A stretch of 63,864 nucleotides of DNA, filler included, from Sphacelaria rigidula (GCA_964200075.2; 8 parts of 8 records of this genome joined end to end with filler, not necessarily neighbours in it), one strand, 5' to 3'; shown: positions 1-52,490, counted from the first letter of the whole stretch. Program-made: numbers and translations. The notes: a model not told the origin generated them from the letters alone.

Positions 1-76
1 GACCTATTGCCCATATCACGCACATCGAGAACGCCTTCTGTTTAAGCGACTAATATCCGCCGTCACACCAGCTCAA

Positions 77-924
77 ATATTGTCCTTTTGATATATATTG
101 TGTTGAGATGCCCTCGGAGACATTGAAGCAACAACATATATTGCTCCTGTCATGATCATGAAGTAATGTATGACAATATACATTGGACATGCATTTGCTC
201 CGGGAATAAAACATTAAATATATATTGTCCATGCCGGCCGTGTACGTATTGAAGTGTCAATATATATTGAGTCGAAGCGATGTGTAGCATATTGTTGCCA
301 TAACATATATTGAACGCAAACCATACAAAAGTATTGCTTTTCCACTATATATTGCGCACGCTCATCGCATAGCTATTGTGCAGCCAACATCTATTGCACA
401 CCTTGCGGAGGAATATATTGAGCGTTTTCGGCATGCAGTGACACATCTTTCAGTGGCGCCCGCGAACATAGAGTTGCTAACCATACTTATTCCAACACAC
501 TTTCTAATATACATGTTGAAAATTAAAATATATTGCTACATCAAACTGTATTGTGACCGTCGGTTCCCTCGTATTTTGTTCGCCTAATATATATTGGACG
601 CATTGACGCACGACATATTGGGGCGGCAATATATATTGACGCCTCGTGTGTTGAGCATATCGAATCATCAATATACATTGACCTCGTGTGGCAGCCAACA
701 TATCACTCGACAAATATATATTGGTGCTTTCTCGCACCAATATATTACTTGGCCAATATATATTGAGGTGGGGCTTGTCGTGGTATATTGTTCGGTCCAT
801 ATATATTGCATGTCGCGGGCCTTGGCATATTGATGGCACAATATATATCGACCCTCTCTCGTGCCATCATATTGCTCGCCTAATATATATTAACCACCCG
901 ACGCGTCGAGATATTGTGCGGGCA

Positions 925-934
<10 letters not shown>
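77..934. repeat. Interspaced ~42-bp-period array: (A)TATTG-N6-CAATATATATTG followed by a variable 18-19-nt spacer, ~18 recognisable units
   Basis: The major motif ends at 100,143,185,227,269,312,354,396, then 553,596,638,680,723,765,808,850,892,934. The minor TATTG motif ends 18 nt before it in nearly all units. Loops and spacers differ between units. Degenerate and out of register at 421-520. Confidence 0.85.

Positions 935-961
<27 letters not shown>
930..961. repeat. (TA)n microsatellite expanded from the last array unit
   Basis: A direct TA run continuing from CAATATAAATAT. Confidence 0.9.
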
Positions 962-962
<1 letters not shown>

Positions 963-969
963 CATATTG

Positions 970-983
970 TATTGTCCAGGGTG
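970..983. mobile_element. Right terminal-inverted-repeat remnant (TATTGTCCAGGGTG) of the CACACC-TIR DNA transposon family
   Basis: Matches the MITE ends attgtccagggtgtg (52476-52490) and attgtccaaggtgtg (15627-15641, 49354-49368). Confidence 0.6.
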
Positions 984-1085
984 CAGAATTTTTTAACGTC
1001 ATCGTACGACTGCTGTACGAGTACACGTCATCTACACGGACGGCAACAGCAACAGCAACAACAACAGCAACAGGATGACCGCAGC

Positions 1086-2828
1086 ATGGGGGAGCCATTG
1101 ACAAATACTCCTACGGCGGACGCAGTGGACAAGCTCGTCAAGGCTGTTGGCGGAACGTTCAACGGGACGGACTTCGATGTCTGGTCCCGCACAGCACAGT
1201 CCATGATCAGCGTGCGGCATTCGGGCATTGCAGACATCCTGGACGGCAGACCATGTCCGTCGACCATTTACAAGAAGACCAAGGGCAAAGCTGGCAAGCG
1301 CAAGAAATATGAAACCTCAAGCATCGAAGATGAAGGAGAGGATGAAGACAAGAATGCAGCAGAAGACTCAGCACTGCATCCCGAGCAATAGCAGCAGCTT
1401 GAGCCGACTTCAACAAGCGGCGAGACTCCTACTTCTGTGATGTGGGAGATGGATGACAACGTCCGGAACGTCGAGGACATCCGGGAGTGGCGCATGGCCA
1501 ACAAGATCCTGTTCCACTTCCTGTTTTTGAGTACGGCAGGACCGGCAGCAAGCTTTCTCCCAAAGTACAAGCCTAGATCAGGCATGTTGCCAAACGGCAT
1601 CGCCGCTTGGAATGGTTTGGTGAAACAATATAAGAACCCTTCACGCCAGCGGCGTCGTATTATGGCAAAACGGCTGTCTAACATGAGAGTGCAGCAAGGT
1701 CAAGACCCGGACGTCTTCTGCAACGAGCTATTTTCGTTACGAGATGAACTGGCGGAGGTGGGTCGAGTAATTACGGGCGACGAGATACTGGACATCATCC
1801 TGAATGGGCTGACGGACGAGTACACCCAGATTCAACTGCTTGCGGAATCGCAAGACACTTTCAATCTTGAAGACGCGATGTTCACCATGAGGAGCATGTT
1901 CACAAACCGTGTCGCAGAAAACGGGCTTTCGCATGCAGCGAAGGGTCGCACCTCGGCGATGACCGCCACAACGGCAAAATACTGCAACTACTGCAAAAAG
2001 CCTGGTCATGACATCAATAACTGCTTTAAGCGAAACAACAAGAAGAGCACAAAGAACAACGGAGGGGGAAGAAGTAACTGGTGGTGCTTCTTGTACAAAA
2101 CCAGTCTTCACGATAATTCGACCTGCAAGGCGCAACGACAATGGGGCAACGATCCTGACGATCAGCGGCAGCAAGGGCAGCGCGGCCGAGGACCATGTCA
2201 CAACATCGGACCACGGCAGCAAGAAATATCCCGCTTCAGCGACAGCAGACAAGGATTCTTCAGCAACAGCGGACAAGGCCGCTTCAGCAACAATACTGGA
2301 CAAGGAGGCGTGAACAACAGCAGCGGACAAGGTGGTAACAACAACACCACCAACGCGGCAGCACACACAGCAACAGCGACACCGGGGTCTACTACTGTGG
2401 TGGGGCACTACAACGCAGCCGGATCATCTACTCTAACTTCCGCGACTGTCACCACTCAACAGGTTTCAGATCCATCGCCTTCATACCCTTCACCTCCTCC
2501 CGGAATGGGTTACTCCTTCGTCGCCACCAGCAGCCTGAACACCGTCGCTGCTCCTTCGCGCTTCACCATGACTGCCGACACCGGCGCCACCAACCACTTC
2601 GTCGACCCTGACTTGCTTCCAAATGTTAAGCACCGAATGATCGAGTATCAGAAGTACGACCCGCCGATCGCCATCAACGTCGCCGGCAAGGGAAAACCCG
2701 AGGGCACCGGCAGAGGAAAAATGAAGGTCGTCACACGGGACCAAACCGGGGCCGAGCACAAGGTCCTGCTGCCCTTCACCATCGCACCAGGGCTGGGCGT
2801 CACCTGTTCTCGGGAGGAACAGCAGTGA
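1086..2828 (+). pseudogene. gag: Copia gag + aspartic protease (in-frame TAG at 1389-1391, frameshift near 2800)
   Basis: Gag helical region (WNGLVKQYK..QGQDPDVF..ILNGLTDEY), zinc knuckle CNYCKKPGHDINNC and protease motif ADTGATNHF. ORFs 972-1391 and 1437-2828 share a frame. Confidence 0.9.
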
Positions 2829-3036
2829 AAGAGGGATGTCATTGGTTTTTGATGGTTTCTCTTTCATTGGAATGGGAAACTTCAAGCTGCCTCTTCGACA
2901 GGACAGCTCCTGCACCACCATGTACTACTTGGATCTGGCTATCGCACCGGACAGCATCTGCACTTAACACGGTTTTATAACCGTCTCCGGCGCAAATCTG
3001 CCGCCTGAAAGAGCGAATGTAGCATCCAGTGCCTCT

Positions 3037-4110
3037 TTGATCCAGGACACGGAAAAGGAAACAGCATGTACCACCTCAACGGCTACATCGATGGCCAACA
3101 CGTGGCATCAGCGACTCGGACATCCCAATGCCCAAGTGCTACTAGAAGTCAGGCGGATGAGAGAGAGCGGGGTAGCGTTTTCCGACTCCAACCCAGCGTG
3201 CGGGACGTGCAAGATAAACAAAAGCACACAGCGGAATCATCCCAAGACCAGGAGCACAGGCGCCACGTAACGACTTCAACTCGTTAGCACGGACCTTCTA
3301 GGGCCCGTCACTCCAATTGCGATCAGTGGCTACCAGTGCATGGCCAAGTTTACCGATCATTACTCCAGGCTTAAGGCCGTCTACTTCCTCGAAAGGAAAA
3401 GTGACGCCCTTTCTTCTCTGGTACGGTTCGTCCAAGACCTCGCCATTCCACTCGGTCTACGGGTACAACGTCTACATTCGGACAACAGCGGGGAATATGT
3501 CAGGATTGCGTTCCGCGACTACTGCAAAACTACGGGGATCATACAGCAGTTCAGCTCCGCGCACACGCCGCACCAAAACGGCATATCGGAGCGCGACGGG
3601 CGGACCATCGTGGACATGACCCGCTGCCTCCTGAACGAAGCGGGTCTGCATGAGCACCTATGGGGGCGTACTCATTTGTTGCTTGCCTTAGTCATTTGAC
3701 CATTGACCACGCATCCCTTTCGAGACGGAGCACCNNNNNNNNNCGGAGCACCGTTCCTACTCCTAATAGAGACACCTCCAACATTCTGGCGCTCATTACT
3801 TTCCTTCTGTAGCTCTATGGGGTGAGATTGCGGCAACTGCGGTACTCCTCATAAACCGCCTACCGCACAAGGCTCTTCAAGGGGACACGCCCTACCATCG
3901 TATGTTCGGCAAGCAGGCAAGCCTTTCCTTTCTTCGGATCATCGGCTCCAGGGCCTTTGTCCACGTCGAAGGTCATACCACCAAGCTGCAGCCAAAAGCG
4001 TGGGAAGGTGTTTTGGTTGGCTACAACGACGACAGCCCAACCATTCGTATCTACGATCGGGCTGGGGGACGCATTATAACCTCCCGGAATGTCACCTTCA
4101 TCGACCCGGT
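3037..4110 (+). pseudogene. Copia pre-integrase and integrase core, disrupted by stops and an insertion
   Basis: WHQRLGHP..CGTC, DLLGP, DHYSR, HSDNSGEY and PHQNGISER, then LWGEIAATAVLLINRLP after the insertion, and SH3-like KLQPKAWEGVLVGY..SRNVTF. Confidence 0.9.
3666..3814 (-). mobile_element. SINE-like dispersed repeat inserted into the copia integrase
   Basis: Flanked by an 8-bp direct repeat CTATGGGG (3658-3665 / 3815-3822). Removing it restores HLWGEIAA. Contains a 9-N scaffold gap at 3735-3743. Confidence 0.75.
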
Positions 4111-4480
4111 TCCGGAACCCCTGAGCTGTACCATTCTTCCGGATAGTGAAGAAGAAGAATCATCGTTCGACACGGCGGATCTGGAGCAAATCCACGACGG
4201 AATTACATTCCTGGATTCCAACAAGGACAACGGCGAAGGTCACAAAATCAACAACCGACAAAAACAGCGCTTCAAGGAACCACTGGGTTCTACACGACGA
4301 CTGTGTTCATCCGGATCCGTTGATCCTTTCCAAAGAGAGATGAATAATCCATCACAGTCTCAGGCGCGACGACAGCTCAACTTCGCGCAGGAAGATTCAT
4401 CTCAAGCGATGCTGGACTCAGTGACCTCGTACATCGCAGCAGTGGGCATCGATTAAGTTCGTTCTCCTGCAGCAATCCAA

Positions 4481-6030
4481 GTGCCCAACACCTGCACGCA
4501 GGCAATGGACTCACCCCAGAGAGCGGAATGGAAAAATGCCATGGACAAAAAATGGACAACCTGGCCGACCACGAGGTGGCGGATCTCGTCCCGTTCGACT
4601 CCGTACCAGCCGGTTGCTCCATCATCGGCACGCGCTGGGTTTATCGGATCAATACGGATGGGCGATCCAAGGCAAGAGTCGTCGTTCAGGGCTGGGCGCA
4701 ACAGCACGGCATAGACTGCTTCACCACATTTGCACCGGTGTACAGGATTGGAAGCCAAAGACTTCTATTGGCGATAGTGGCTGCCCAGAACTCGCCGGTC
4801 ATCGCCATGGACGTGCAGACAGCGTTCCTAAACGGTACCCTCTCCGAAGTGGTGTACACGTTTCAGGTGCCACGATTCGAGAAGTTCGAGAGCACCACTG
4901 GCAAGTAGCCGGGTTGGCGTCTGCGCAAGAGCTTGTACGGGCTGCGTCAACCTCCGAGCGTTTGGAACTCAACAATCGACGAGGCTCTGCGCACGGACGG
5001 GTTCACACCTACAGCATCTGACCCCTGTGTCTACACTAAGGGCAGCGAAGGCACCTACTGCATGCTGACACTCTTCGTCGACGACATTCTTCTCACGGGC
5101 CCTTCTACAGACGTGCTGCATCAAGTGCGTCAGGAACTTCAGCAATCATTCAAGATAACTGATCTAGGTCATGCGACTCAGATTCTGGGCATCGACATTC
5201 ATCAAGACCTGGAAAACGGCACAATAAGCCTCAGCCAGGAGAAATACACCATGTCTGTGCTCCAGCTTTATGGCATGGATACGTGCAATCCCTCGCACAC
5301 TCCAGGGACAGGAGCCGAGCTCAACAACGCAACTGGTAAACCTGCACTTCTTTCCGCAAGCGAGAAAAAGGACTACCAGAGCCTGGTGGGAAGCCTCATC
5401 TTCCTGGTGAATTGCACAAGATTCGACATCGCGCATGCCGTCATGCAGGTAGCACGGCACATGTCAAGTCCGACCACCGCGAGCGCAGCTAGCGCCAAAA
5501 GGATTCTTCGGTACCTCAAGCGCAACCCAGGTCTCGTCATTGCTGACAAGCGCGCCAGCGACTTCAGCATTACCTGCTACAGCGACGACTCCTACGCACC
5601 TGGACCATCAAGCAAACCCATCACCGGATCAATGGTTTCTCTGAGTGGAGGGCTCATTCACTTCGGCAGTCAAGTTCAGCGCATAACCGCACAATCGACA
5701 TCGGAGGCGGAGCTCATCGCAATGAACAGCACCGCCAAGCACGGGCTCTACTTCTCTTCTACGCTGGGGGAGCTAGGATGGTCACGGCAACGCACCTTCA
5801 CCCTGCATGCGGACAACCGGAGTTCCCTGACCCTAGCTTCGGAGGCGAACTTCAGCCATAGGTCGCGGCACATCGCCGTCCGCTTCGCCGCACTCCGCGA
5901 ATGGATCCGTCAAGGCATCATCAAGCTAATCTTCAGTCCAGGCCGCCACATGTTTGCCGACCATTGCACCAAGTACTGCGTCCGCGACGTACAAGACAGC
6001 CTCATGCGGCAAACCCTCCAGTCCAAGTGA
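4481..6030 (+). pseudogene. pol: Copia reverse transcriptase + RNase H (frameshift near 4550, stop at 4906-4908)
   Basis: KARVVVQG, MDVQTAFLNG, LYGLRQ, LFVDDILL, YQSLVGSL, YSDDSY, STSEAELIA, ADNRS, SRHIAVR, ADHCTK. Confidence 0.95.
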
Positions 6031-6601
6031 CGACGCCAAAACTCAAGGATCGGGCTCCTCACCATCGCCATGGGATAGTCCGGGCGGAATCTTCTGTACA
6101 TCTCGTCATCGACATGTTCTCCCGCAACGAGCTGTAGGGAGAGGAATAATATTCCGCCAAGAGCGACTCTACGCGTCGTCCGCAGCGAGAAACATCTTCT
6201 TCTGCCAGAAGAGAGCAGCAGACAGCAGTATATCACTGCAACTTGTCTTTCTTGTGTTTCTTGCGCATATTCGTATAGCGCCCACGGGCAACTCTTCACG
6301 TATGATCGTAAAAGCAGTAGCTTATAGCATATGCTCCGGAGTAGTAACCACAGAAGATCTGTGCATACTTTCTGCATTTCCTGAGTAGCTTGAATATCTA
6401 GGCTAAAATTGTTGACTTCTTGTAGGCAGCATTCTTGCGTTCTCTATATTTGCTACATCTACCGTACATGCTACAGAAGGAAGCGCGAGAGATCTTTGTT
6501 CGATCTCTGTTAGTCGCAAGTGGGAGTAATATCTTTTGCGTAAGTGTTTTTTGCATCGAGATACTCCTTTGGATTAATTTCCTTTGAGACGACTTTCCAT
6601 T

Positions 6602-6953
6602 GAGGGGGAGTGGTGGAATATTCAATGTAAGTCATTGGTAACGACTACTATATATCGTAGGTTATCATAAACAAGGAAGAAACCTTTTGAGTGTTCCAAA
6701 AATAGTCTGCGGTATATTCTGCGGTACATTATGTTTCCAGAACAAGTTGTCAGAGGATTGATTAATGGGGAGTTGTCGGTTGTAATATCCCGCGAGTGTT
6801 CTAGACGTGTGGAAGTTCTGGAAGTTCATTAGCTGATCGGTAGGCTCGCACACTTGGCGCTCGCCCACCTCATCACTCCTCTACTATTTCTCTTCTCATA
6901 CCCTTCTCTTCCATGAGTTAGAGTCTTCGGCCACATAAGCACCAAGTTCAACA
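6602..6953 (+). repeat. Polypurine tract (6602-6610) and 3' LTR (~6611-6953)
   Basis: GAGGGGGAG is directly followed by TGGTGGAA...TTCAACA, an imperfect TG..CA inverted terminus. The right boundary is inferred. Confidence 0.65.
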
Positions 6954-7896
6954 TCTCCATTCTCAAGTCAAGTGACTCAACCGTCATTCTCTGCACCTCT
7001 GCATAAACTGCAGAAGACAGTTGCCACATCGGCACACCATCAAGAGTGAAGCCATATTCCTTCACACGCGGACGGTGGGATTGGTTCAAATTGAGCAAAA
7101 TTACCAAAGAGCCAGAACCTTGGGTTTTGTAGATGCAGGACCTCTGAGGACCGGTCAGCCGGGTAGGTCATTCAATACAGGCTGGTTCAGGGTAAACTAC
7201 CTTACATACTGTTATGGGCGCGCCTGACCCCCCAAACTGGGCAAAAAACGTGTCACCGACCAAAATCACGAAAAGACACGAACATATCGACTTTTGGGGC
7301 TTATTCAGGCTCGTCGGATCAAATATGCCTAACGTCATCGGAAGAGAACGACATGGATCCCAAATTCATTTAGAGAACCCTACCGTTACTTTCTTTGTCG
7401 TTCCACATATATTGAATGCCACTGCATAGCTTTTCGTCCGTGCTTGCGATACTCTGGAATGCCAGGAGGCTAGTTGGGTCGATCCAACTCAACGCACACC
7501 AAAAACCCTCGGGCAAGGGGGGTACATACATTCTCTGAACAAAGTGAGGCCTTGGTAGACCCCAAATTTGCGCCTGTGGCGCCGATTTTAACGAAAGCAC
7601 GTCCTGCTCACACGAGGAGCCCACGGGAATGTCAGTGCTACTTGAAATCCGATTCTTGTTGTACACATTCAAACCAAGTAATATCAACCATGAACATTTG
7701 TAGCCCAACGCCTGGAACGGGAACGCTGAAACATTTATTTTTGCAAAACCATATGCTCAATATGCGACAGAACCATATGTACTGATGAACTACGACGAGG
7801 ACGGTCCTTATACAGACGAGTGGAGTACCGTCGCCGGGTGTGTCATGTAGGCTGGGCGGATGTTGGTCGACTTCCTCGTCATGTTTATCGAGTCAT

Positions 7897-7996
7897 NNNN
7901 NNNNNNNNNNNNNNNNNNNNNNNNNNNNNNNNNNNNNNNNTTAATTAATTAANNNNNNNNNNNNNNNNNNNNNNNNNNNNNNNNNNNNNNNNNNNN
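7897..7996. other. Artificial contig linker N44-TTAATTAATTAA-N44 (also 15893-15992, 23889-23988, 31885-31984, 39880-39979, 47875-47974, 55870-55969)
   Basis: An identical 100-bp spacer with stops in all frames separates segments of 7896 or 7895 bp, as in size-sorted contigs. Confidence 0.98.
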
Positions 7997-8065
7997 ATCC
8001 CTTTCGAGACGGAGCACCGTTCCTACACCTAATAGAGACACCTCCAACATTCTGGCGCTCATTAC
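7997..8065 (-). repeat. Fragment of the SINE-like family at a contig start
   Basis: Near-identical to 3714-3799. Confidence 0.85.
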
Positions 8066-8474
8066 GCGAAGAAGGGGAGGAGTTGCAAACTAGACCAAAA
8101 TATGTAAAAACAGAGACACACGCCTGAGAGGAGCAAACGCATGACCGCTGGAAAAGCTCGACTGGTTGCTAGTCATTGTAACAGACCGAAGCCGAGGCGG
8201 AACAAAAAACGCACGGTAATGGCCAACATGCCGAAATTGAACACCACGCGGGCATTCAAAACTTCAAGTCTGTGATTCGTGCGTCATACGATCACATTCC
8301 TACTCGATCTGCGGTGAAACCTGCCCCAATTCAAAGGGAATGCAAGTCCGATTGCATGTTTTTATTTTTGCATGATTTTTGACGACACAATCCACGTCTA
8401 CAACCCCACACAGCTGTCCTCAGCACAGATAGCTCCAAGTGACCGCCGCCGCCAGCAGAAGCACGAGTTCTCAC

Positions 8475-11400
8475 CTGTAGAGCTTGAGGGCGAGATCTAG
8501 CTGCAGCCGCTCCGCCCGACGGAAAGCTGCATTGAAGCGGAGACCTCGCTTGAGCAGCTCGCGGAAACAGCTCATCAAGCCTTCCAATCTCTCGCGGGTC
8601 AGCCTCCGCAGCTCCGAGTCCGCACTCCTGAGAGACACGAAGATAGCATAGGCACGAATACAACACAGGTATGGCTTGAACACAGGAACGACGCTAACTC
8701 ATCCCAGGAATAAAAAACACGTATAGCCACAAGTGCCACCTGAGGAGACCGCGAAGCACGGGCAGCGTGAGTGAAGCCGAACTGCGTTGCCGCACGAGTA
8801 CACGCGACTGCAGCGCACAGTTTTGAGGTGCTACCGTGTGAAAAGATTGCCGTCTGAAACGAGTTCTCCATGACTGCGGGGATACGCGCAGACTGAACAT
8901 GAACCCGTCCAAAGCAGACATGCTCCATAGCGTCCGCACTAGTCCCCCCTCGCCATCTCAAGCACTCACTCTTTTGCTCGAGCAGCCAAATCGACACCAC
9001 CCACGGTGGGTCTTGATCATGACACAAGTCCGGCTCAGCTTACAGCGTCGCGCGATTACAACAACGCCTGGAGCATGACATATTTCAACAATCCATATTC
9101 CAAAATTCCCATGCCGCCGCACCCTCGTGATCTAAGTGGTACACCAACAACCATCAGCAAGCGAATGCGGAAGAGATTGCGTCTTCGAATCCTGATAGAT
9201 ACGGTATTTTCGACAGAAGCTGCTTCTCGCCGTTGAATGAGAGCGACGAAAACGAAGTTTGACGAGAGGCCACAGGATACGGCAGTGCTGCTAGTCAACA
9301 TTCAATCGTCGATAACAAAATGTCAGGCATGTACAGAGGGAGCGGTCGGTCGATCCTGCTAAGGCTATGGACTCGTCCCGCGCTAGCGGCAAACCCAAGT
9401 ATGAGGGGGAACACATAACGAACTCTCTACGCCCAGGATAAAGTAAAAACACACAAAGCTCAAGATGCCGTATAAGCAAGCCGGACATCCGACCCCTGCA
9501 GCGGCCAACCCCGTCGCAAAGTACGAGAAAAAAAGCACCCAGTATCTCTCATGTGGTGGGTAAATCATTCTAAAACCCACCCACAAGCGACACGAACCCC
9601 TTCCACCGCGTTGCCCCCACTACTTCCCCAATTCTCCGACAGCTCTACCCACCTCTTCAAGGCAGCGGAAACTGCCGTGGCCGTCTTTTCAATAATCGCA
9701 CGTGCCACCCTCCTCGTCAGCAACGCCCGCACCGAGGACACCGCCACCAGGGCATATCGTAGCGCCTCCAGCGGAACACCCTCTGGAGCCGCCCCCGCCC
9801 CCCCCTCCGATTTCTTCACTCCCCCGCCCTCCCCCGTACTGGCCACCGTAGGCCGTGGCGGCAGCGGCGGCCTACTTGAAACGGCGATAGGCGATTCCAC
9901 AGCAGCATCGTGGCGCTCGTCTCCCTCGAGAGAATCCACTGGGTTTGTCACTACCGTGGAAGGCGAGGTTGTGGATGGGGGGGGGCGAGGGGGCAGGGGG
10001 GGAGGTGCCCCTGCAAGGGGCGCCCGCGCCGGGGTTGGGAGCGGTAGTGCTGGTTGTCGAATGGGTTCTGGAGGGGAGAGACATGCGATGAGTGATTCAA
10101 AGCCTCCTGCTTGACCGAAGGCGTTTACGTTGTCGACCTGGTGTACGGCGAGATAGGTTCGTATTGGCGGATGAGCGTGGACGATAGGAGACGGGACGAG
10201 GGGTGCTTGTGCAAACTGGCTAGACAACGTAGATGTGTCATCATATGCATTGTAGCCGGAGTACTACATGAAGACCGCACGAAGACCACGCATCAAGGTA
10301 CAACGAATGCGAAATAAGCGACCATAGTTTTGATAAGCAATCCAATCGCGTGGCATCGCATCTTTCACAAAAAAAAAAACGTTCCCCCCCCCCTGCCCAT
10401 ACACACTGTAAAGTTCCGCATGCAGCAGATATTCCACCCCCCAATAACTACTGCTGCCATATTCCAGCCTCCAAAATGCGCACGCACCAAAAACGGAGCG
10501 CCGTCCACTGGTGCACGGGCCACCGCGAACACCAACTTCCCATCCGCGGTTAAGTAAGGATCATCGATATCGTTAACCGGGCACTGCGGGACGAAAATAT
10601 CAAACGCAGGGGGCACGCGGTGTGTCGTGGTCGGCAGAAGGTGAGTGAGACAGCTGACATCCGCAAGAAAGCACGATGGATAGGATGCTACTTTACAGTG
10701 CCATATGCAGCGTTCTTCAATTCTGGGTAGCAAACCAACTGGGCACCGGTCTCATGACACGAAACAACACTATGAACGTCAGTCAACCATCTTAATAGCA
10801 ATCCAATAGTGGCGACGCTCTCGAAAATGCCAAAACGTGAGGAGACTTGGCACTTTAATGTTTTTTAGTCCGTAACATATTTTTTTCATTACCGCTCATC
10901 ACCCTACCCTTCCCGCCCTCCTGAACGTGAAGCAAAAACTAGGGCAACTTGCGACTACAGCTGCAGTAAATGTTCTACCCCATCATTATCTTGCCATTTT
11001 TTCCTGGTAGCTGAGGGCAGTGTCACCATGTCTACATTCGCTCACGCGAAGCACGCGTCTAGAAACCGCGCACGCTCATAACGTCGCAGAGGAAGGACCG
11101 CGCATGGCCACCATTGCAACACGCAATCCGATAAAATCTCCCTGCCCCCCCCCCTGCAGTACGAACGGTGCTCCGTCTCGAAAGGAACATGTGATCAATG
11201 GTCAGACGACACAAAAAATGAGTACGGCGCCGGTTGGCGATGACGCTGTAAAGCACGCCTCGCATCGCGTAAGCTAGGCAACCAGGTTACCGCTTTTTTT
11301 GCACGCTTGCTTTCTTTTCGCGGTCATCATGATGATGGTCGAACTAGATCATATTGTGCGGCGTGGGAGAACTCCAACTCCGCGCAAAGGGAGATGATCG

Positions 11401-12900: not shown

Positions 12901-15471
12901 GATGCCTAGTTCCTCCTGATCCCCACATTTTGGGATCGAACGCCCACTGGGATGAGCGGTGGCACGCGAAAATATTATTGAAAATCGCCCAGTGCGAAAA
13001 AATAATAAAAATCCCCTACTTCAGCTGAAACTACGGTATAACAAAAGTAGCATACATCCCCCGATCTTTTGTGATGAAAAACCTTCAGAGGTGTGTGTGT
13101 ATGTATATATATATATAATTACGGGACACCCAAGATCACACGACGACAAGTTTTCAGTCATCCGGCCGCTCACAAAAACATTAATTTTGTTGTCACGTGT
13201 CAGCATGCCCATGCCGAGGGCGGTTTACCGATATTACAAGCATCAGTATCCTGATATTGACACACCCGCTCACCTCTCGGCCCGTCGACGGGTGTGCGGC
13301 CCCCAAAAGCTGGCGCCACTGCTGAAGGCATGGCGGCGGGAGCGGGGCCGGGTAGGGGCGTGCCGGCAAGGCCACCCGGCGCAAGCGCCGCCGCGATAGC
13401 TCTCACATCCTCCCGCTGTGCCTCAGAGGTTACAAGGTTTCCGCCGGCCCGGTAATCGGGGTGGTCCGGCTGGTCTATGCCGTTGTCTTCCCACAAATCT
13501 TCTTGGTCCCCGTCGGGGTCAAACACACGGTAGCTGATCAGCAGGTCGAGCCCACTCTCTGTGATGCATTTTCAAGAAGGCAGTCGTGGCGGGGCACATG
13601 TGAGTCGGATTGGGAAGGGCTTGGAGGGTAGGGCACAATCAATCGGGGCCCGAGTTTAGTTCGTGCGTTCTCGTTGTACTTCATAGTACACTGAGCTTCC
13701 CCTCCTCTCTGCTTTCCTCCGGGGGACGAATCTGTAGGCGAGAGGAATTCAGCTCACCTCTCTTTCCGTTAAAAAAAATGACCAAATTCTCAAGCACACA
13801 TGACTTGCACCGCGGAGAAGGACATATTTTTACTCGTCGTTTTTGCCGAGATATATCAAGTTGGTCACGAAGTCCTGATTTACTTCTAGATGCAGCGGAA
13901 CTCTCCCCCCTGCGCTCGATATACCACACACGTCAATAAAAACCAAAATCATGGCAACGAAAACCGTGAGCGTGCTTGCGTGCTGTGCGTAGTCTTCACA
14001 TCGTCTTGCCCTTTGGCACCAGGCCGGTGAATGACTCGAGCGGGCCGCACAAGTGGTAGCTCGGCCATCCCGGCACCACTTTTGTGGCCGCGAACGAGGG
14101 CCGCCAGCCCTCTGTGGGGTTATGTTCCGGAATTGTCATTATCCGTATAATATCCAAGCGAAGCGAAACATTGTTCATGCATCGGAAAATTGGCGCCGAT
14201 ATCGTCAGTTTACCGTAGTCGGCTACAATACATACACCATTATCCAAGGGATCATGGCTCAAGCACGATCAGGCCTACGTTCTTGCCTCGAACACCGGAA
14301 TTATTGCCTAGTATCGCAATAATATGGTCAAATCTTGCCGGTCAAACACACCTAGTTTTTAGTGATCACAACTGAAGCGAGACATTTTTTATCTTCAAGG
14401 GTGCTACGCCCGACCCTCACCATTGGCACCGCCACCCATAGAGCCCACGCCAAGAACGACTGGTGATTCCGCTCTCTCCCTCACGGCCACTACCGTAGCG
14501 TTGCACCTGCGAGCAGATGAGATGTGCGCATGCATAACGATCGGCACGTTTGGATGAACGCAGCGGGAGTGACAGCGGGTATGCTGTGAATAAGCACAAG
14601 CGTATAATGCTTTTATTACACACTATATATTCGTCATGCTTTCAACGCTCCCCTTGCTGCGGACGAATCGGTTGTCTCGAATGGATGTGTCTGCCCATTT
14701 CTCCCCCAGAATATGTGCCCGACACTTTGCGATCGAGCAATGGATCATGGATCACTGCCCATCTCTCGCTCGGGGTACGTGCCCGACAACTTGCCTTTCA
14801 CTGAGCAATGGATCATGCACTGACACATCGATTCTCTTGTCGAGTCAACTTAGCTCACGACCCCACGATTTGGATCACGTAAATAAACCAACCAAACAAT
14901 ACACAAGTTTACTGCTGGGCTTCAAACCCGCCGATCCGTCCAAACCGACCGATCAAGTGCCGGTTCGACCACCGAGGCGCGGCGCTGAGCGGCGGGTTTA
15001 GGTGTCGAAAGGAAAGGTTGTTCAGGATACACCTCAAGTTTGCGCAACAAGAAAGACGACCATCGACGGGCTGCAGGAGTTGTCATCATCCAATGTTCGA
15101 CAAGTCAAACGGAAGGCAGGTGCTATCGGAGAGGTGGGCTGTTCCTTCTATCCTACGGACCTGTCTAAGGGAAGTGGAAAAAAGAGGGGGGGAGGGGGAG
15201 GGGAATACGACAAATCTACACGGTCCCCCCTTTACTGCAGCTCGTGGCACTGCAAGTAACGATGTCCCCTGGAACACAAAGCTACAGCTTGGCATGAAAT
15301 AAGGTGCGCCCCGCCCCGGCGTTTTCTTCGCGCTTCGGTCACGGTCCCAGCCTTCCCGCTGTTGCACTCCAATTCGAAATGGTCAAGCCGAGACGAGAGC
15401 CTCTGTCAACAATGATGCCTTTCCAAACCGATGCGGTGGTTGAACGGGAATATATATATACATATATATAT

Positions 15472-15641
15472 CACACCTTGAACAATATATGGTCGATAGA
15501 TGCAATAGACGAGAAGTGTACTGAATGAAGCCTAGGCCTCTTGCAACTATTGCCGGCCGACATTAGTCGCAGTAGGCCTATACTCTATGCAGTACGTTTC
15601 TTGTCTATTGCAGCTATTGACCATATATTGTCCAAGGTGTG
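15472..15641. mobile_element. 170-bp palindromic MITE (TIR CACACCTTG..), inserted in (TA)n
   Basis: Near-complete inverted symmetry, with ATATATAT on both flanks. Confidence 0.85.
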
Positions 15642-15816
15642 ATATATATATATATATATTGGGAAACATGCAAGGAAGAAACGATGGTCCAAGATTCTCT
15701 AAACGATGGCACGGTATCTCCGACCACCCACTGCCAGGAGGCGGAACGTAACGCGTGGAAACTTCCTCCAAAATAGTCCAAGAATGTGTATTTTTATCCA
15801 CATACAATAACTGCTC

Positions 15817-15892
15817 GGGGGGGGGGGCGTACTCATTTTTTGCTTGCCTTAGTCGTTTGACCATTGACCACGCCTCCCTTTCGAGACGGAGC
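15817..15892 (-). repeat. SINE-like family copy preceded by a G-run, at a contig end
   Basis: Matches 3666-3733. Confidence 0.85.
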
Positions 15893-15992
15893 NNNNNNNN
15901 NNNNNNNNNNNNNNNNNNNNNNNNNNNNNNNNNNNNTTAATTAATTAANNNNNNNNNNNNNNNNNNNNNNNNNNNNNNNNNNNNNNNNNNNN

Positions 15993-16448
15993 GCGCCGTG
16001 ATGTTGTCGACGAGTCGCATGAAGGGTGAGCTGCATCCTGCTAAGATTGTTCGGCCCGAAGCCTACTGATTACCTTGCATTCGGATGACAGCCTCGAATG
16101 AGTTGCTTTGTTTTGTGATATCATCACTTACGGAGACAGACAGCCACAGGGACAACAGGCCTCATGTCTCACTATTTGAACACTGCGTCGTAGGATCATT
16201 CCCTTTGTGCGGAGTTGAGGTTCTCCCGCCCCGGGCAATATGATCTAGCTCGACCACCATCACGGTCACCCCGGAAAAAAAGCAAGCGCACAAAAAACAC
16301 GGTGGCCTGGTTGCCTAGCTTACCCAATGAAAGGCGTGTTTCACAGCATCGTAGCCAACGGACGCCAACCCCACACGGGGTCCGTATCTACAAAGTCGGG
16401 ACGGAGCACGCCAGGTTTTCGCCGCACCAGACGGACGATGGGGGGGGG
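15993..16448 (-). mobile_element. Copy of the ~600-bp dispersed repeat
   Basis: Diverged reverse-complement match to 11226-11670, ending in a G-run. Confidence 0.75.
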
Positions 16449-16586
16449 TGAAGTTGCTGATATGGGTCCGTGCGTATCTCCATCGCGCGTTCATTTCGCC
16501 TACCGTGAGAATATACATACATGCTCTTCGGCGCGTGCTTACCCACACGTGCTGCACTTGTTAATATTTTGTTGCTATCCCTTCAG

Positions 16587-18931
16587 TGGCGCGAGCGATG
16601 GTCGTGTCAATGACGCAACTGGGAACGTACGACCAGGCGAAGACGATGCTGGTGCCAATATTGGGGGACAACACGGGGACGCACTTGGCCGCTGCGCTTA
16701 CTGCGGCCGTGGTGTATTCATACGCTTCACTTCCGCTTGTGAGTCTTGTTCTGCTCAGACGAGGCGGGGGGAAGCCGTGAAAGATCCCTCGCAGAAATCT
16801 CTGAGTAAAAATAAGCGATAGTGCGTGTGTTGACGGGAGCTCTCCAAAGATTTTGCTGCATGTGTGCGACGCGGCATATTGTCGAGAAATATATCATAAG
16901 TCGTTATCTGGCACTGTGCCGCTGCTGTTTCGGCAGATGTACCGAAACTTCGTTACAAATTACTCTGCAGTACTGTTGTGACAGCGTTGTTTGTCCTCGA
17001 AGGTTTCTCTCGAAATCTCATCCGTGTGCCGGGGTTGTACACCTCATGGGAAACTCACTTTTATGACAATTGAGGGTATTCCATTCACCACCGAAGCCAA
17101 GGTCCAAATTGTCCGCGTCGGGGCGGAGGCGGGGGGGGGAGAGGGGGGTGAGGCAGTCATTCTGTAGGATAGCGTATGACTTGAGGCATACACATGTGGT
17201 CAACGGACAGATCCGTTTCTCTTATTTTTCGCCGAAGAGTGTAGTTTTATTCGTTTCGTAGACCTCTGGCTCTGCCGGCAATACTGGTGCCATTCATCAG
17301 GTCGGGTGGTACTGATGCGCTCTCGTCATTGTTTTCACTCTGCCAAAACCCCACGGGGGACAGGACTCGGCGAAGACTCGCATGCAAACCCAAACTACGC
17401 GAAAGGACGGCGGGCCGCTGAAGTACACCTCTACGATCCAAACGCTGTCGTACATAGTGAAGGCCGAGGGGTTCACCAGGCTGTGGAAGGGCTTCACTCC
17501 GTACTTCGCTCGTTCAGGGACACATACGGTGAGAGCGTCATTTCCGTCGCCGAGCTTCGGCGAGCGTGAAGTTTGTTATTGATGCTGGCTTGAGCTGGCT
17601 GGCCGACTGCGACGGCGCAGATTGCGTGCAGCCTTGTAGGGGGAGAAGAAAGCCTGCGCGAATAGTGCGGGTCCCCGTGTTTGGTGCCGCGTGTACGCCC
17701 TCGATCGCCACGGTGGGTCATCTGAGTCTTGCGTTCACTTGAGATGAAAAAAACATGCCGATTCGATAGATGGATCCATCGTGGCGATGAAAGATGATAG
17801 TTTCAGTGTGTTGTTGCTGTTCTTGACTTTTTTTGCACAGGCGATTTGTCACCTTCACTCGAGATAGGGAGAGTCGGTAGGCGTTGGAAAAAAAAGCAGG
17901 TCGTCGTCATGACGCATTTCTCAATTTTGTGCTGTCGGAACGATAGAAAGTAAAACGCCGTTTATCGAGGGGGTGTTATTGACCGCATATGGCCCAAAAA
18001 ACACGTGTTTTCGGCTGTAGCGCAATGAATGCTGAGAAAAAAAACTGGCATAAAACTGTTCGTTATAATGATCCGGATCGGTTCGCTCGAGCGAAAACAT
18101 CAGAGAGCGAGCAGCGAGGGCTGTACACTCGTAGGGCCCCCGAAGAGCGATGAACCCGTATTTCGTTCAATACGAGTCCGGATTACACTTTTTTCTTCTC
18201 GAAACCCATGTCGCGTGCTTACATCTCTTGATTCCCGAAGTTTGGATAAAACAGAAACCGCGATGAGTCGTGGTATCCGAAAAATCCGAAAAATATCGCC
18301 TTCCATCGAAAATGTTTCGTCGAAACTTTGACCACTAAAGGCTACGGCGTAAGCCGAGTCCACGCCCGGCTGGGATAATTTTGGTTCCGGGACGGGTAAC
18401 CGGCGCACGCTGACCTGGCGTTTCCACATTTTTTGCTTGATGATGAATACCTGCCTGCAGCTTTGAATTTCGGGTGTGAGGTTTGTTTGACGTGTCTGCA
18501 GCGTGCCGCTCCGAGAATAGCACGCACACGTCGGACAGATCATGATCCGTCTGAAAATTAAGTCTTCTTAGTATGCTGATCCGGATCATGATCTGGATCA
18601 GTCGGCCCCGCTTTTTCGTGTTTGCTCCTTAGAGCGCCGGACTCCGAGCATGCCGAGTAGCGTGAAAGTTGCGCTTGGGCTTTTCTGACTCCGCGGTCAC
18701 ATGTTTTGTGTTTCTGAATCAATAGATTCGAGAGTCTTTGATCGGTTGTTTCAGGCAGATCATGGTCTGTCCAACGTGCGATAGCACGCAACCCTCCCCC
18801 CTGTGCACACGTCATATTGACGGCGTGGGTTCATGCTCTGCTGTATACCTGTACCTATTTGTGCACAGGTGCTGATGTTCTTGTTCAAGGAGCAGTACAC
18901 GAGATTGGCGCAGCGGTACTACGATCTGTAA
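16587..18931 (+). CDS. Mitochondrial carrier (SLC25; 2-oxoglutarate/malate or dicarboxylate type), last three exons 16587-16738, 17364-17528, 18869-18931
   Basis: ARAMVVSMTQLGTYDQAK..SLPL|DSAKTRMQ..EGFTRLWKGFTPYFARSGTHT|VLMFLFKEQY..stop. The PxDxxKTR carrier signature spans a phase-0 junction, and all splice sites are canonical. Confidence 0.92.
18520..18600. repeat. GATCCGGATCATGATC-type dispersed repeat; inverted copy at 20451-20520
   Basis: The reverse complement of 20451-20520 aligns with 18521-18592. Confidence 0.6.
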
Positions 18932-21900
18932 CCGAGTTTAGGAAAGAGCAAGGAAAAACTAGGGTCGGTGACCAGGAAAGGTGGATCTTGTGGTTTGCAC
19001 GCGGTTGCTTCGTGTTGTATACGTGTGTTATGCGTCCCAGTTTTTCCTGCTTGCTGTTGCTTTCATGTACACACTCGGGTGACGAACAAGCTGCCGCTCC
19101 ATCGGCACGGATCGTTAGTTCTAATCTCGACTTACGACGATGGGATCGACGATGCTACGCGCAAGCGTCCGCCGCGGTTAGCGTGTACGCAGTACGTTGG
19201 ACAGTCGATTTGTCGATGCCTCCCATATGCCCGTCATGCACGTGGCCGGAGGGTGCGGAACGAGATATTCGGGCGGATTAGTACCGCCCGTTGACGCTAA
19301 GTTTGCTTCATATTTTGGAATTTTTTTTTGTTGCAAGGTAGCTGTGTGATATTTTTGTGGTAGGCGTTTGTGCGTCCACCTCGACCCTTCTATTGAGTGT
19401 TTTTGCTGTGGTGATTAACGTGAAAGCGATACCGGTTTGCGTGTGATGCACGCTGTAAATTTTCGCAACACCTGTTGGACTTGAATGTTGGTTTTGTTAA
19501 CCCCCTCTGTACCTGGTAGCTCTGGGACGTCGGAACAGCGGTGTATGTAGAAGCTCCCGAGTGTGTGGGGGTAGAGTACTACTACACGCACGGTTCACTT
19601 GTTAGGTGTAACCGTTTCACGTGGAATTGTATGTGTACAAGGTGAAGATTTTGCAGACACGCAGAAGCGGAGCAGTTTTTGAATTGGTCATAGTATTGTA
19701 TTACAAGCTGTGTACCGGGGGAGATATGGGATTATCCTCTTGGCACCAAAATAGTCGTCCCGAGGAAGGGAAGGGATTGTTAAGGTTGATGATGCGACGA
19801 AAAACAAAATCGGCTTGGACCGCTCTCGAAGCAGTTATAAAGACGTGTTCCAGTGAGCGTCGACGAAAGCACATGAGATATCGTAACAAAAGGTATCGGT
19901 GATGGAGGCGTTTTCGCTGGAAAAATGAGCAAGAGCCGTCAACATGCGACGAGCTCTGACATCAATTGCTCGCGGCAATAACGTAGTTGCCCCACGCTCG
20001 CGGCTTTTGCGAGCTTTCGAGCGTGCTAGGAGCGTATACGTCGTGAAAATTGCATGATTTGTCTGTTTAGTATACTTTGAGGATAGTCACTAATCTTATC
20101 GAGATTTGTTGTATGGGGACTCTTGAATGTCTGAAGTGTGTTGCAATGGTGAAGCACCTCGACGTCGTGCCATGATGCCCCTCGCATCGCCCAAGCACCT
20201 GCTTCGCACTATTTTGCGTTTCGAAGTTGATTTACCACGTCTTGTATGCCGTACTTCCACACGTCGAACAGCTCATGAGCTACCTAAAATAACCAATCAA
20301 AGAGGACTCTCAGGTCCCTTGTCCAAAACGAAAAGACCGCGACATCAGAGTCCGAGAAGCCAAAGCGCTTCCTTTTACGTTATTCGGCATGCTCGGCATC
20401 CAGCGCTGTAGGGAGAAAATATGCAATAAGTGGACCAACTCTGAGCTAGTTCATGATCCGTATCAGTATTCTAATAAGAAGTAAATAATATTGATGCAGC
20501 TCTGTCCGACGTGTGTATGCTTGTACCCGCCGAAAGCCGAGCGAACAATGTTACGCTGAAATTTCATCCCCGTTTCCCGTATGAGTTACAGGCGAACTGT
20601 TATGTGCGTTTGCAGCGATAATGTACTGTGCATTTTTAGAAGCGATTTCTCCCATTTATATCGAATCTTGACAGGGTACAGCAGTACACGATTTTTCTTT
20701 CACGTCCATGTACTGTGTCCACTTTCTAGTTTGGGACTTTTGAGTGAGAGGGGGGTACCAGACCACAAACCACTATCCCTCCTAGAAACGCCATTATAAC
20801 GCCGATATAAATCGACCTCCTACCAAGTTCTACACAGAAAGGGGGCGGTGTCAGAGGGGGTATACCCGCTGATACGGAAGTTCAGAGAAAATAATGAAAA
20901 GAAAGAAGAATAAATGGAATAAAATAATCAAGCGCAAATAATTAAATCAGGTATGATTCAAAACTCATAAGGTGCTGTGGGTGATGCATTTTGTCGGAAC
21001 GCTCTACCCACAACTACTACCACTGTCGTGGCCCCAATGTGAGTCTCCTCCGTTATGACTGGTTTGTACAAGCCTGAACAGCAGACATGAAATGGGAACG
21101 TGGGTTTTCTATGGGAATGATCTGAGATCGACGTTGCATATGATGCGGAACCTTCAACACGCACATCTGTACGTTGCTTGGTATGACACAGGGCAGCATT
21201 AATGCAGTTGTGACAAGTGTGTAAGCCTACCGGAGCATATGCTCGTCTCAAGGCGAAGAATGTCCTCAGTTGGAGTCAGAATGATCGCGGGTACAAGCTG
21301 GGTGCAAAAAAAACTTACAATGTGAACTCCCGAATCTTCGACATGTTGACAATTGCCCCGCAGCCCGCATGTAGTAAGCGACACGGGTGCCTCGCTTGCG
21401 GTTGTCAGCAGCTGAGTGATTTCCAAATGTGCAATGACCCCGACTGTTCAAGCTGGCGATTGTTTGCGGGATCAAAAACATCGTGGCCGCCGCGATCGTG
21501 ATCGAAGGGTCGACCATAGCCGCTTCACGCCGAGCACTGCGCAGGTACTTGGTTGATGCTGCGTGCATGTTGGGTAGGACACATGGCCTGATATGCACAT
21601 GGGTTCTGTGGTATTTGACATCGTTTGGTCTATACCTGTAGCCGCTGGCCCAGCGGAACAGGTATTATTCTCTGCACCGCTTCCTCGTCTGTACAAACAA
21701 GGCAGCGATATGTATGTGTTTGTTGGTGAAGCAGAATATCGAGGCGTAGACAGTGAGCACTGCAAGCTCTCGCCACATCATGGTGTCTTTTACAGGTATA
21801 AATTGCATCCATGTACTCGTAAAGTAGGCTGCCTGCCGGAACCCGATACGGGGGCTTCGCTCGCACCGCGCGCGCCTGTGACAGTCCCCCTTCTTAAGAT

Positions 21901-23117: not shown

Positions 23118-23141
23118 CACACACACACACACACACATGGG

Positions 23142-23189
<48 letters not shown>
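23118..23189. repeat. Compound (CA)n-(GA)n-poly(G) microsatellite
   Basis: Seen directly. Confidence 0.95.
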
Positions 23190-23192
<3 letters not shown>

Positions 23193-28000: not shown

Positions 28001-28450
28001 GGTCATCTACTCACTCGTTATTCGATATGTTCATGATTCCATCACTACTCGCGAAAAATTGTGCATCACGCACCATTGTACACCGACAGTCGCTTTCTGA
28101 AACCGGGAGAGAGAGTGCTCTATACCCACGGATCTCATCAGCTGTTGGATAAACGGGGGATATTCATACACACAACGCGGAGTCACAATATGTCCTCATC
28201 GGTTATACTCACTCATCGCGGTAGGCGAGTCTTGTTACACGCCACAAGATTTAACACACATAATAACTCCAACAACATACAAGGGCAACACACACTCCCT
28301 CATCCTTACTCTCTGATCTCTGCACAGACGTCAACATTGAGGCGCACACCATTGAATTCAGGATCGACGACGACGAGCCTCCGCCGACAACGATGCCTGT
28401 ACCTCTTCCTTTATGTGAGGCGCTCGAGAAGGTCATTGGCGGGTCTGTAG
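25039..28450 (+). pseudogene. Degenerate multi-exon coding fragments of unknown, probably transposon-borne gene(s)
   Basis: Protein-like ORF pieces at 26215-26897 and 27411-27780 (flanked by CAG and GTGAGT), broken by stops. Weak Ulp1-like motifs near 25140-25240. Confidence 0.3.
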
Positions 28451-48740: not shown

Positions 48741-49200
48741 CTTCAGTACTCGTGGGGAGTCAATGTATGAAATCTGATTCGTCCTAACCGTGGAAGAATG
48801 AAGGTTCGATTCCTGGAAACATGTACATTTAGGTTTTATTGGGGAGTACATAATTTTTGTTTTCGTCGTCAAGAACTTGAGGAGGTGAGTAGCAAGGACT
48901 ATTTTTTTTATCGAGATAGTGTCTTGAGGATACGGACATGTCTCGAGGAAGCGGAGGGGCTAAGATTTTGATAAATAAAATAAGATTACACAACACGATG
49001 ATTCCTCTGCTAGAAGTGCAGCTGCGGTGACACAAGATGGACATGTGTACAAGAATGGGGGTCACACAAAGAGGAGATACTCGCTAAAGCAGACTCGAGT
49101 AGCGGAAGGATAAAGCACAAGAGCAAGAAAAAAATAATGTAGACTGCCAGCGAAGTTATCTACATGCACAAGTTGGTCAATTGATTTGATTGAAGAATTG

Positions 49201-49368
49201 CACACTATGGACAATATATGATCGATAGTTGCATTAGACGAGAAGTGTACTGCATAAAGTATAAGCCTATTGCAACTCTTGCCGACCGACAATAGTCGCA
49301 ATAGGCCTATACTTTATGCAGTACACTTCTCGTCTGTTGCAACTTTTGACCATATTGTCCAAGGTGTG
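49201..49368. mobile_element. 168-bp palindromic MITE (CACAC.. TIR family) with 8-bp TSD
   Basis: AAGAATTG at 49193-49200 and 49369-49376. Same family as 15472-15641. Confidence 0.9.
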
Positions 49369-50071
49369 AAGAATTGTCGCACGTTCTCCGATCCCCGAGG
49401 TAAAGTGGCCATGGTCGCACGATAGATGTACTCAAGGTAAACTCAACGGAAGTGTTCGCTGAAGAGAGAGAAAAGGCAAAAATCACGACAAAATAAAACA
49501 AACACAAAGGAGGGAGCTGAGAAACCCGGAACCAAAAGCAAACAAAATAGAACGAGAACCAAAACAAGAACAAAAATAAGGAGGCAGGGAAAGGAAGGGA
49601 AGCGGACGGAGAAGGACGAGAAAAGAAACGTATATACCCTTTTTCACGCAGTGATGATGTTGAAGTTTTTTGACAACGGCGCCTTTTGCACACAGAAGTC
49701 TTGTACACAACAAGCCAATGGGGAGAAGAATCACACAAAAACATGAACGTCCGGTCGACAGAATAAATCTCGGAATTCGACTAGCGAAACTGCACGAGGT
49801 AGATTTGAGTTTTTGTGGTACACTCCTCGTATCATCTTGATTCATGTCTATGATAATCGAGAGTAACCGTAGAGAGGGCTTGAAATGTTTCAAGGTAGTT
49901 TTGGGTAGGGTGCATACCCGGAAATGTACTCTCCCGAATTTTGTGGGTGCGATGGTCCAAGCTCCAAATTCTACCCAAATATTGGGTAAAGTTGGGGACG
50001 ATTCAAATACTCTACCCCAAGCGTTCGGTACTTTAAGGCCGATTTTCAATATACTCGAATGTAGAAAATAT

Positions 50072-52338: not shown

Positions 52339-52490
52339 CCCTGGACAATATATGGTCAATGGTTGCAATATGAAGAATCGTACTGCGTAAAGTACAGGCC
52401 TATTGCAACTATTATCGGTATCGGCTATTGCCGTATATGTTGTCGGTATAGACCTATTGCAACTGTTGACCATAAATTGTCCAGGGTGTG
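52339..52490. mobile_element. Diverged copy of the CACACC-TIR MITE (another right-end remnant at ~54060-54143)
   Basis: CCCTGGACAATATATGGTCAA..TTGACCATAAATTGTCCAGGGTGTG. Confidence 0.8.

Follow-up and report, generated by a model that had tools for sequence, protein, structure and literature searches.

An array of short motifs, set at a regular distance from one another, opens the stretch of DNA considered here, and a decayed Ty1/copia retrotransposon follows it (Table 1). The whole stretch, called the window in what follows, is 63,864 bases long and consists of eight pieces, each of ~7.9 kb, joined by N44-TTAATTAATTAA-N44 linkers; the array is found where piece 1 (1-7896) begins. The retrotransposon retains recognisable domains (Pfam: Retrotran_gag_2, 1.5e-10; rve, 3e-09; RVT_2, 8.6e-29), and shows its decay in several ways: the frame is broken, a stop lies in frame at 1389-1391, and a foreign repeat of ~140 bp sits around N9 (3662-3803). 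In what kind of genome does all this reside? The top matches of the reverse transcriptase are at 62% identity, and the closest named ones, at 43-53%, are Sphacelaria rigidula proteins. As it is nearest to brown-algal proteins, the host is, on sequence grounds, a eukaryote and probably a brown alga or close relative. One sequencing run that contains the stretch carries the label algal metagenome.

Table 1. Features of the window (positions counted from its first base)
Feature	Position	Strand	Remarks
Non-array sequence	1..58	+	No recognisable 42-bp unit; apparently the same high-copy repeat
Array block 1	59..396	+	8 units of 42/43 bp, N18-ATATTG-N6-CAATATATATTG
Interruption	397..554	+	Partial or degenerate units: TATATTG ending at 420, AAATATATTG at 526-535, TATTG at 548-552
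Array block 2	555..934	+	9 units of 42/43 bp
(AT)18 microsatellite	925..960	.	Tandem Repeats Finder: period 2, 18 copies; extends from the last motif
Terminus of array element	961..984	+	Reverse complement of the MITE-family inverted terminus; tip directed away from the array
Junction and short leader before copia gag ORF	985..1085	+	Low-copy; contains a (GCAACA)5 run
Degenerate Ty1/copia body	1086..6030	+	Outside the array element; gag, integrase, reverse transcriptase/RNase H
MITE-A	15472..15641	.	170 bp, foldback-like, same terminus family; ATATATAT octamer on either side
MITE-B	49201-49368	.	168 bp, arms of 69 nt with 87% complementarity; 49193..49376 with duplication
MITE-C	52339..52490	.	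152 bp, same terminus family

Motif, spacer and period

There are 17 regular units (window 59-934), and they come as two blocks of 8 and 9 with a 158-bp irregular stretch between them. When units are anchored at the end of the long motif, those of block 1 end at 100, 143, 185, 227, 269, 312, 354 and 396 (steps of 43, 42, 42, 42, 43, 42 and 42, followed by a 200-bp jump) and those of block 2 at 596, 638, 680, 723, 765, 808, 850, 892 and 934 (steps of 42, 42, 43, 42, 43, 42, 42 and 42). All 15 within-block steps are thus 42 or 43 bp, with a mean period of 42.3 bp. The initial annotation had described one continuous array of ~18 units with a 42-43-bp period; the period is borne out by every within-block step, the count is 17, and continuity is broken at 397-554 by irregular and partial units.

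Each unit has the layout TATTG, 6 bp, CAATA, TA, TATTG, i.e., one direct copy of the pentamer and an inverted pair that forms CAATATATATTG. With up to 1 mismatch, ATATATATTG has 40 matches in the window where 2.65 are expected, a number that no shuffle out of 100 attains; 32 of the matches fall within 91-962. The two-part pattern TATTG-N8-ATATATATTG, with up to 2 mismatches, has 15 matches against an expected 0.10, all save one of them on the + strand of 78-892. The full scaffold, ATATTG-N6-CAATATATATTG with its 18 specified bases, is found with up to 3 mismatches at 16 + strand sites in the window, all inside 77-934; counted by unit, the mismatches are 3 or fewer in 15 of the 17, 5 in one and 6 in another. 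A palindrome had been ascribed to each unit, and its exact 12-nt form, CAATATATATTG, occurs just three times (258, 627, 754), the remaining units having near-matches. The seven 6-nt loops listed in the same annotation are all present at the register given there. Tandem Repeats Finder, run on the window, did not report the array, which fits spacers that have diverged to saturation, and when 1-100 was aligned with 397-600 only the motif was common (score 26, shuffled 22.9 ± 4.1).

How unevenly is the unit conserved? Motif columns carry 1-2.15 bits of information and most spacer columns 0.04-0.4. Between units, mean pairwise identity reaches 0.78 in the motif but only 0.266 in the 6-nt loop, and in the 18-nt spacer it is 0.275 against 0.258 in shuffled sequence, a value that 58 of 2000 shuffles equal or exceed. 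Per unit, 18 of 42 positions are kept. Divergence along the unit is therefore strongly non-uniform, in keeping with the earlier observation that motif and spacing persist while spacers are unrelated, and not the uniform divergence that had been named as the sign of an old minisatellite. Together with the steps, the difference between motif and spacer suggests that both motif and geometry are under constraint, and the saturated spacers imply either that the array is very old or that its origin was other than simple unit duplication. The conserved motif columns include G/C ones (columns 24, 31 and 42, kept in 13, 11 and 15 of the 17 units), and A/T positions of the spacer are not conserved across units.

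Base composition is a separate matter. GC content is 0.60 in spacers and 0.19 in motifs, with a window background of 0.42-0.55. Simple neutral drift would not predict such GC-rich spacers, and they count, as does the full saturation of the spacers, against the reading of the array as a transposon arm that is set out below.

Genomic copies and a shared terminus

Contigs from four public sequencing runs were mapped to window positions 1-3000; three of the runs (X1, X2 and X4) are DNA-type and X6 is guessed to be RNA, and from the comparison a repeat filter removed 919-1080. Each DNA-type run attaches 3,654-4,325 contigs to 1-3000, at 80-99% and mostly 80-95% likeness, and at single array positions ~100 or more contigs are counted. 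Summed depth, which is an uncalibrated sum over contigs and not a copy number, is 13.8k-28k (13,830-28,279) in the array blocks against 198-911 in the copia body (1101-3000) for X1, 105k-164k against 1.0k-3.9k for X2, and 43k-74k against 312-998 for X4. By that measure the array is covered ~20-200 times as deeply as the neighbouring copia element, and the trough of the stretch is at bin 1001-1100 (73 in X1). In X6 the ratio of array to copia depth is the same as in the DNA-type runs, so that it is uninformative on expression.

Contigs of 280-570 bp are colinear with the window over 6-9 units at ~83-88% identity (~12-17% differences), and as motif columns make up only 43% of a unit, the spacers must be common to the copies. 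The interruption at 397-554 has a depth of 5,072-9,581 in X1, below that of the blocks, and some contigs bridge it (e.g., 401>549, 402>589); it is present in fewer genomic copies than the blocks are. Other contigs skip 42 or 83 bp (303>346, 180>264), and in other copies (AT)n is found before 855. At positions 304 and 704 nearly all contigs have the canonical T and the window a C, and at 385-396, where the window has the degraded motif CAACATCTATTG, other copies have a perfect CAATATATATTG; the family consensus is hence more canonical than the copy in the window.

The depth of bin 1-100 equals that of bin 101-200 in all four runs, and the loose ends at 67/68 involve 11-21 contigs against ~100 contigs at the nearby position 111. 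Sequence 1-58 accordingly seems to be part of that high-copy repeat, with the element continuing beyond the start of piece 1. Among the loose ends listed there is no head-to-tail junction of a long unit, and a minority upstream variant at position 68 has no likeness to the array end. The window holds one copy of the long array element, and the contigs do not distinguish dispersed from tandem copies.

What lies at the other side of the array? Shortly after its last unit CCCTGGACAATWTAT is matched on the - strand at 967-981 with 2 mismatches, and the reverse complement of 961-984 has a 13-14-nt run identical to the tips of a family of MITEs, the match being ~15 nt overall. A stray match of the motif pattern at 52328-52350 had pointed to this family. 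Its terminus has the consensus CACACCYTGGACAATATATGGTC, with tips that read CACAC, and includes the array motif (CAATATAT). In the window the terminus pattern has 8 matches where 0.17 are expected; five of these coincide with MITE ends and one with the array end, and the other two fall within the array (220-234) and at 60079.

The three MITEs differ in the state of their flanks. MITE-B has a perfect 8-bp target-site duplication, AAGAATTG, at 49193-49200 and 49369-49376 and is the sole clean case; the ATATATAT on both sides of MITE-A is compatible with such a duplication; and MITE-C is without a clean one, as the outer 4 bases are missing from one tip. Two of the three, MITE-A and MITE-B, are near-perfect foldbacks over their whole length. 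With three copies, one perfect and one compatible duplication and two foldbacks, these are true elements with terminal inverted repeats (TIRs). Per kb, the pentamer TATTG/CAATA is found 29.8-35.3 times in the three MITEs and 37.8 times in 59-984; elsewhere in the window (61,823 bases) the figure is 1.76, which makes the enrichment ~20-fold in both MITEs and array. The left outer arm of the MITEs carries CAATA and the right one TATTG, and in the array, a right arm by its terminus, TATTG and CAATA number 27 and 8. What the window contains is then the right end only, one arm with 17 subrepeats, and the left end is beyond the window start. The sequence at 961-984 could alternatively be what is left of a separate MITE inserted into the microsatellite, given that the match is of ~15 nt, that (AT)18 separates terminus from array, and that MITE-A sits in such a run.

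As to superfamily, Pfam searches with the five longest ORFs of pieces 2-8 yielded no family and no transposase. An 8-bp target-site duplication, as expected of hAT elements, is seen cleanly for MITE-B alone, and the element is not assigned to hAT: the usual consensus of hAT tips is YARNG whereas the tips here start CACAC, and no BED or hAT transposase was seen here. From sequence, the element may instead belong with Mutator/foldback elements (the duplications of Tetris are 8-10 bp) or with other superfamilies that make 8-bp duplications.

A probable transposon arm and its rivals

Because the MITE-family terminus is at the array end, the motif is inside that terminus and the pentamer is enriched in both, the array is in our judgement probably the subterminal arm of a non-autonomous TIR DNA transposon, with its phased motifs as putative transposase-binding sites. 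Of the roles proposed in the initial annotation, phased sites in a transposon subterminus was the preferred one, and terminus, contained motif and pentamer enrichment favour it, binding itself being what we infer. Cut-and-paste transposons classically carry the binding motif of their transposase in the terminus and repeat it in the subterminal region, an arrangement matched here. The element is most likely a very abundant one of a brown-alga-like genome, seen here from the right end of one copy, and is probably non-autonomous. How might such a lattice work? The mean period of 42.3 bp would be four turns of 10.6 bp and so put equivalent sites on one face of the helix. By analogy with known elements, an autonomous partner may provide a protein, either its multimeric transposase or an accessory DNA-binding one, that binds the subterminal repeats cooperatively, and binding to the lattice could serve the recognition and pairing of transposon ends. 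Mobilisation would be restricted to copies that keep motif and spacing, and such selection at the level of the element would let the geometry persist while the intervening sequence drifts to saturation. Is it the sequence that would be recognised, or a hairpin in RNA or DNA? Compensatory double changes are found in none of 6 pairs of the ATATTG/CAATAT stem, and the paired percentage equals that of shuffled sequence (80.4); at low power, as there is little variation, this argues for recognition of sequence. An RNA fold z-score of -3.7 for 555-934 reflects motif pairing across units and not one hairpin per unit.

The same boxes might now be kept for chromatin and not for transposition, in a satellite or dispersed repeat of transposon origin to which a host protein binds, either in the manner of the CENP-B box or in a heterochromatic or architectural role. 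The very high copy number and the conserved spacing would suit this, the contigs that skip 42 or 83 bp point to variation in unit number as in satellites, and transposon arms are known satellite sources (TIR-220 of Tetris, in the part available of PMC4079207). We regard it as unlikely, as the listed loose ends include no head-to-tail junction of a long unit and the variant at position 68 is unlike the array end, the copies, mostly 80-95% alike, are not homogenised, and the single window copy has an element-like terminus; furthermore, most centromeres in the brown algae so far studied are without satellites, according to the accessible portion of a preprint (bioRxiv 10.64898/2025.12.07.692804). 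Of much the same low probability is a functionless old minisatellite in a transposon arm, its motif retained non-selectively by a mutation bias that spares A/T or by motif-primed slippage or conversion. Tandem repeats often expand in foldback-type arms with no known function (PMC4079207, in the part available), the (AT)n at 925-960 extends from a motif and other copies have (AT)n before 855, and the spacers keep a residual trace of similarity. However, simple A/T-sparing fails as spacer A/T is unconserved and motif G and C are conserved too, units vary by no more than 1 bp in length across 15 steps despite the saturated spacers, and the same pentamer is enriched in the interiors of MITEs that look unrelated. 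More doubtful than either is a transposon-borne platform of ~50 helically phased sites for one multimeric DNA-binding protein that, once spread over thousands of loci, may now serve host chromatin or genome architecture. A domesticated transposase would then read the array, as a brown-algal counterpart of CENP-B box or boundary-element arrays, and the GC-rich spacers, specific to each unit yet common to the copies, could give each unit an address.

Three further readings are far less probable. Tandem repeats do occur in the untranslated regions of retrotransposons, and the array is directly upstream of gag (array end 934, gag ATG 1086), which would invite its interpretation as the 5' leader or LTR of the adjoining Ty1/copia element. 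A TIR-type terminus stands between array and gag, though, and, apart from AT runs, 1-1085 has no second copy in 6030-7896 or elsewhere in the window; with this and with the contrast in depth, which has its trough at 1001-1100, the array is very unlikely to be either. We give as little credence to a tandem of tyrosine-recombinase-type core sites, another role in the initial annotation, in which 6-bp inverted arms would flank a 6-bp overlap. ATATTG-N6-CAATAT is the geometry of 15 of the 17 units, but such arms are very short, and every 6-bp core differs, so that recombination between units would be blocked, as differing cores block it at Cre/FLP-type sites. A brown alga does have many tyrosine-recombinase elements (DIRS/Ngaro), by a table in PMC12477816; the inverted termini and 8-bp duplication of the related MITEs are instead the mark of a DDE transposase. 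Least credible of all is the guide-RNA array, CRISPR- or TIGR-like, after which the locus had been titled, and for which only the appearance speaks: fixed motifs with two variable segments per unit. TIGR systems have a structured repeat RNA, dual-spacer guides and an adjacent Tas (Nop-domain) gene; here there is no covariation in the stem, no Rfam match at the gathering score (matches for 1-1100 are sub-threshold and on the (AT)n run) and no adjacent Tas-type ORF, and TIGR was rejected. CRISPR was rejected too, as the spacer series is common to many copies and the flank is a eukaryotic copia element. A comparison of spacer order between copies had been proposed beforehand, an identical series in all of them to speak against a guide; the same series recurs in very many, and a guide role is refuted on that count. 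Nor was such an array found elsewhere. A double-unit pattern had 0 matches in viral contigs, 21 loci in metagenome contigs that are short-period AT microsatellites or chance pairs with no 42-bp array among them, and 4 loci but no array in prokaryote genomes. The single-unit scaffold was matched at 6 loci of the viral collection, one site each and in AT-rich DNA, and the MITE terminus at none.

Related architectures and significance

Does the array represent a new class of system? It does not: on the favoured reading it belongs with the subterminal repeat arrays of transposons. Long arms of many short conserved motifs in less conserved surroundings are familiar from Drosophila FB elements and from the clusters of a 12-bp motif in En/Spm (CACTA), to which a protein encoded by that element binds. 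Neither is related to the array in sequence. FB has periods of 10, 20 and 31 bp and a 9-bp duplication, En/Spm has irregularly spaced motifs and a 3-bp duplication, and the array has a phased period of 42/43 bp. The CENP-B box, whose binder is a domesticated transposase, is likewise a short protein-binding box at fixed register in tandem units that otherwise diverge, those of alpha satellite; but alpha satellite is centromeric and belongs to the host, with 171-bp units, and the array is at an element terminus. With CRISPR and TIGR arrays it has in common the alternation of short invariant motifs with variable segments of constant length; it is unlike them in having spacers common to copies, a eukaryotic host, and no effector gene, covarying structured repeat or acquisition polarity.

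The nearest described architecture is that of Tetris and its MITE relative DAIBAM. In the part available of the report on them (PMC4079207), Tetris of Drosophila virilis/americana is a foldback element without coding sequence; tandem repeats, variable in number, make part of its arms, its termini are common with DAIBAM, its target-site duplications are of 8-10 bp, and it has no known autonomous partner. The likeness lies in a non-coding element with tandem repeats in an arm, in a repeat number that varies between copies, in the duplication length as seen at MITE-B, in the autonomous partner not being known, and in the outermost terminus alone being common with the short MITE. The differences are that Tetris repeats are ~220 bp and alike over their full length while the array has 42/43-bp units with 18 of 42 positions kept, and that Tetris is a foldback while the array element is known from one arm. 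For the hAT element Hermes, according to the portion accessible of PMC10368747, precisely phased subterminal repeats are required, a palindromic pair is bound cooperatively, the BED fingers of a transposase octamer bind the subterminal repeats, and shifting a site by a single bp impairs cleavage. A short motif both in the terminus and inside the end, the palindromic pair, the phasing and an 8-bp duplication are the points of resemblance; in that same portion (PMC10368747) the AAG(T/C) sites of Hermes are irregular, 17 and 14 per end, in contrast to the strict 42-bp lattice here. From Tetris, FB and the like, the array is set apart by a short, strictly phased unit in which only the putative binding motif is conserved. 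As for brown algae, the main text of an Ectocarpus transposon paper (PMC12477816) has no matching description, and the family may be catalogued in its library or in Repbase; "Sower", an abundant unclassified Ectocarpus repeat, is named in one review without sequence. The 12-mer CAATATATATTG itself has no match in the searchable literature.

What, then, would this mean? A false lead has been removed, the array being neither CRISPR- nor TIGR-like, and a long repeat-rich element has been linked to a MITE family through a common terminus. TATTG, paired as CAATATATATTG, becomes a candidate recognition motif for a transposon family that is abundant in a brown-alga-like genome and has so far gone undescribed. 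If the reading as a subterminal arm is true, this is an unusually clean natural case of selection on a protein-binding lattice and not on sequence, where 18 of 42 positions and a four-turn spacing are kept and the rest has drifted to randomness, and it would provide a handle both on the autonomous partner and on how multimeric transposases read phased subterminal sites.

Mobile elements among the joined pieces

The window consists of eight pieces, each of ~7.9 kb, concatenated via N44-TTAATTAATTAA-N44 linkers, and genomic adjacency of successive pieces is not implied. Foldback-like MITEs of 150–170 bp, with tips CACACCYTGGACAAT, are present in three copies, one of them with a perfect 8-bp duplication, and as their density in this sample is ~1 copy per 20 kb, the family is likely abundant. 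There is also an isolated 12-nt match (CCCTGGACAATT) to the MITE terminus, i.e., the inverted tip of this family, and adjoining it neither a partner end nor an array is recognisable.

The integrase of the degenerate Ty1/copia retrotransposon next to the array is interrupted by a repeat of ~140 bp, which is probably a further MITE-like element. Further copies or halves of it, with 86–98% identity, occur in pieces 2, 5, 6 and 7, and both ends of piece 2 fall within copies.

Positions of linkers, repeats and open frames in the window
Feature	Position	Strand
Linker joints	7897-7996, 15893-15992, 23889-23988, 31885-31984, 39880-39979, 47875-47974, 55870-55969	
Foldback-like MITE copies	15472-15641, 49201-49368, 52339-52490	
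Isolated match to MITE terminus	60079-60093	-
~140-bp repeat in copia integrase	3662-3803 (N9 at 3735-3743)	
120-aa stop-free frame	504-866	-
43-bp tandem repeat	42078-42232	
(CTA)n tract	51410-51891	
584-bp tandem duplication	62011-63175	

Other tandem repeats

A 43-bp unit, itself palindromic internally, is repeated 3.6 times with 84% matches; its period equals that of the array but the sequences are unrelated. Elsewhere a 584-bp unit is directly duplicated in tandem (96% identity), and there is a long imperfect (CTA)n tract (~160 copies, 78% matches). The open frame of 204 aa overlapping this tract is probably artefactual, arising from the repeat.

Composition and reading frame of the array

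Is the stop-free frame of 120 aa that traverses the second block of the array a gene? It is instead a by-product and no gene: the motif, i.e., the fixed AT-rich boxes of the unit, lacks a stop codon in all frames, the variable 18-nt spacers between the boxes are GC-rich, and the 42/43 wobble shifts the frame between units. Spacer GC (0.60 across 59-934) exceeds that of every 2-kb bin of the window (0.42-0.55), which neutral drift alone should not produce, and the alternation of AT-rich box and GC-rich spacer may itself be constrained.
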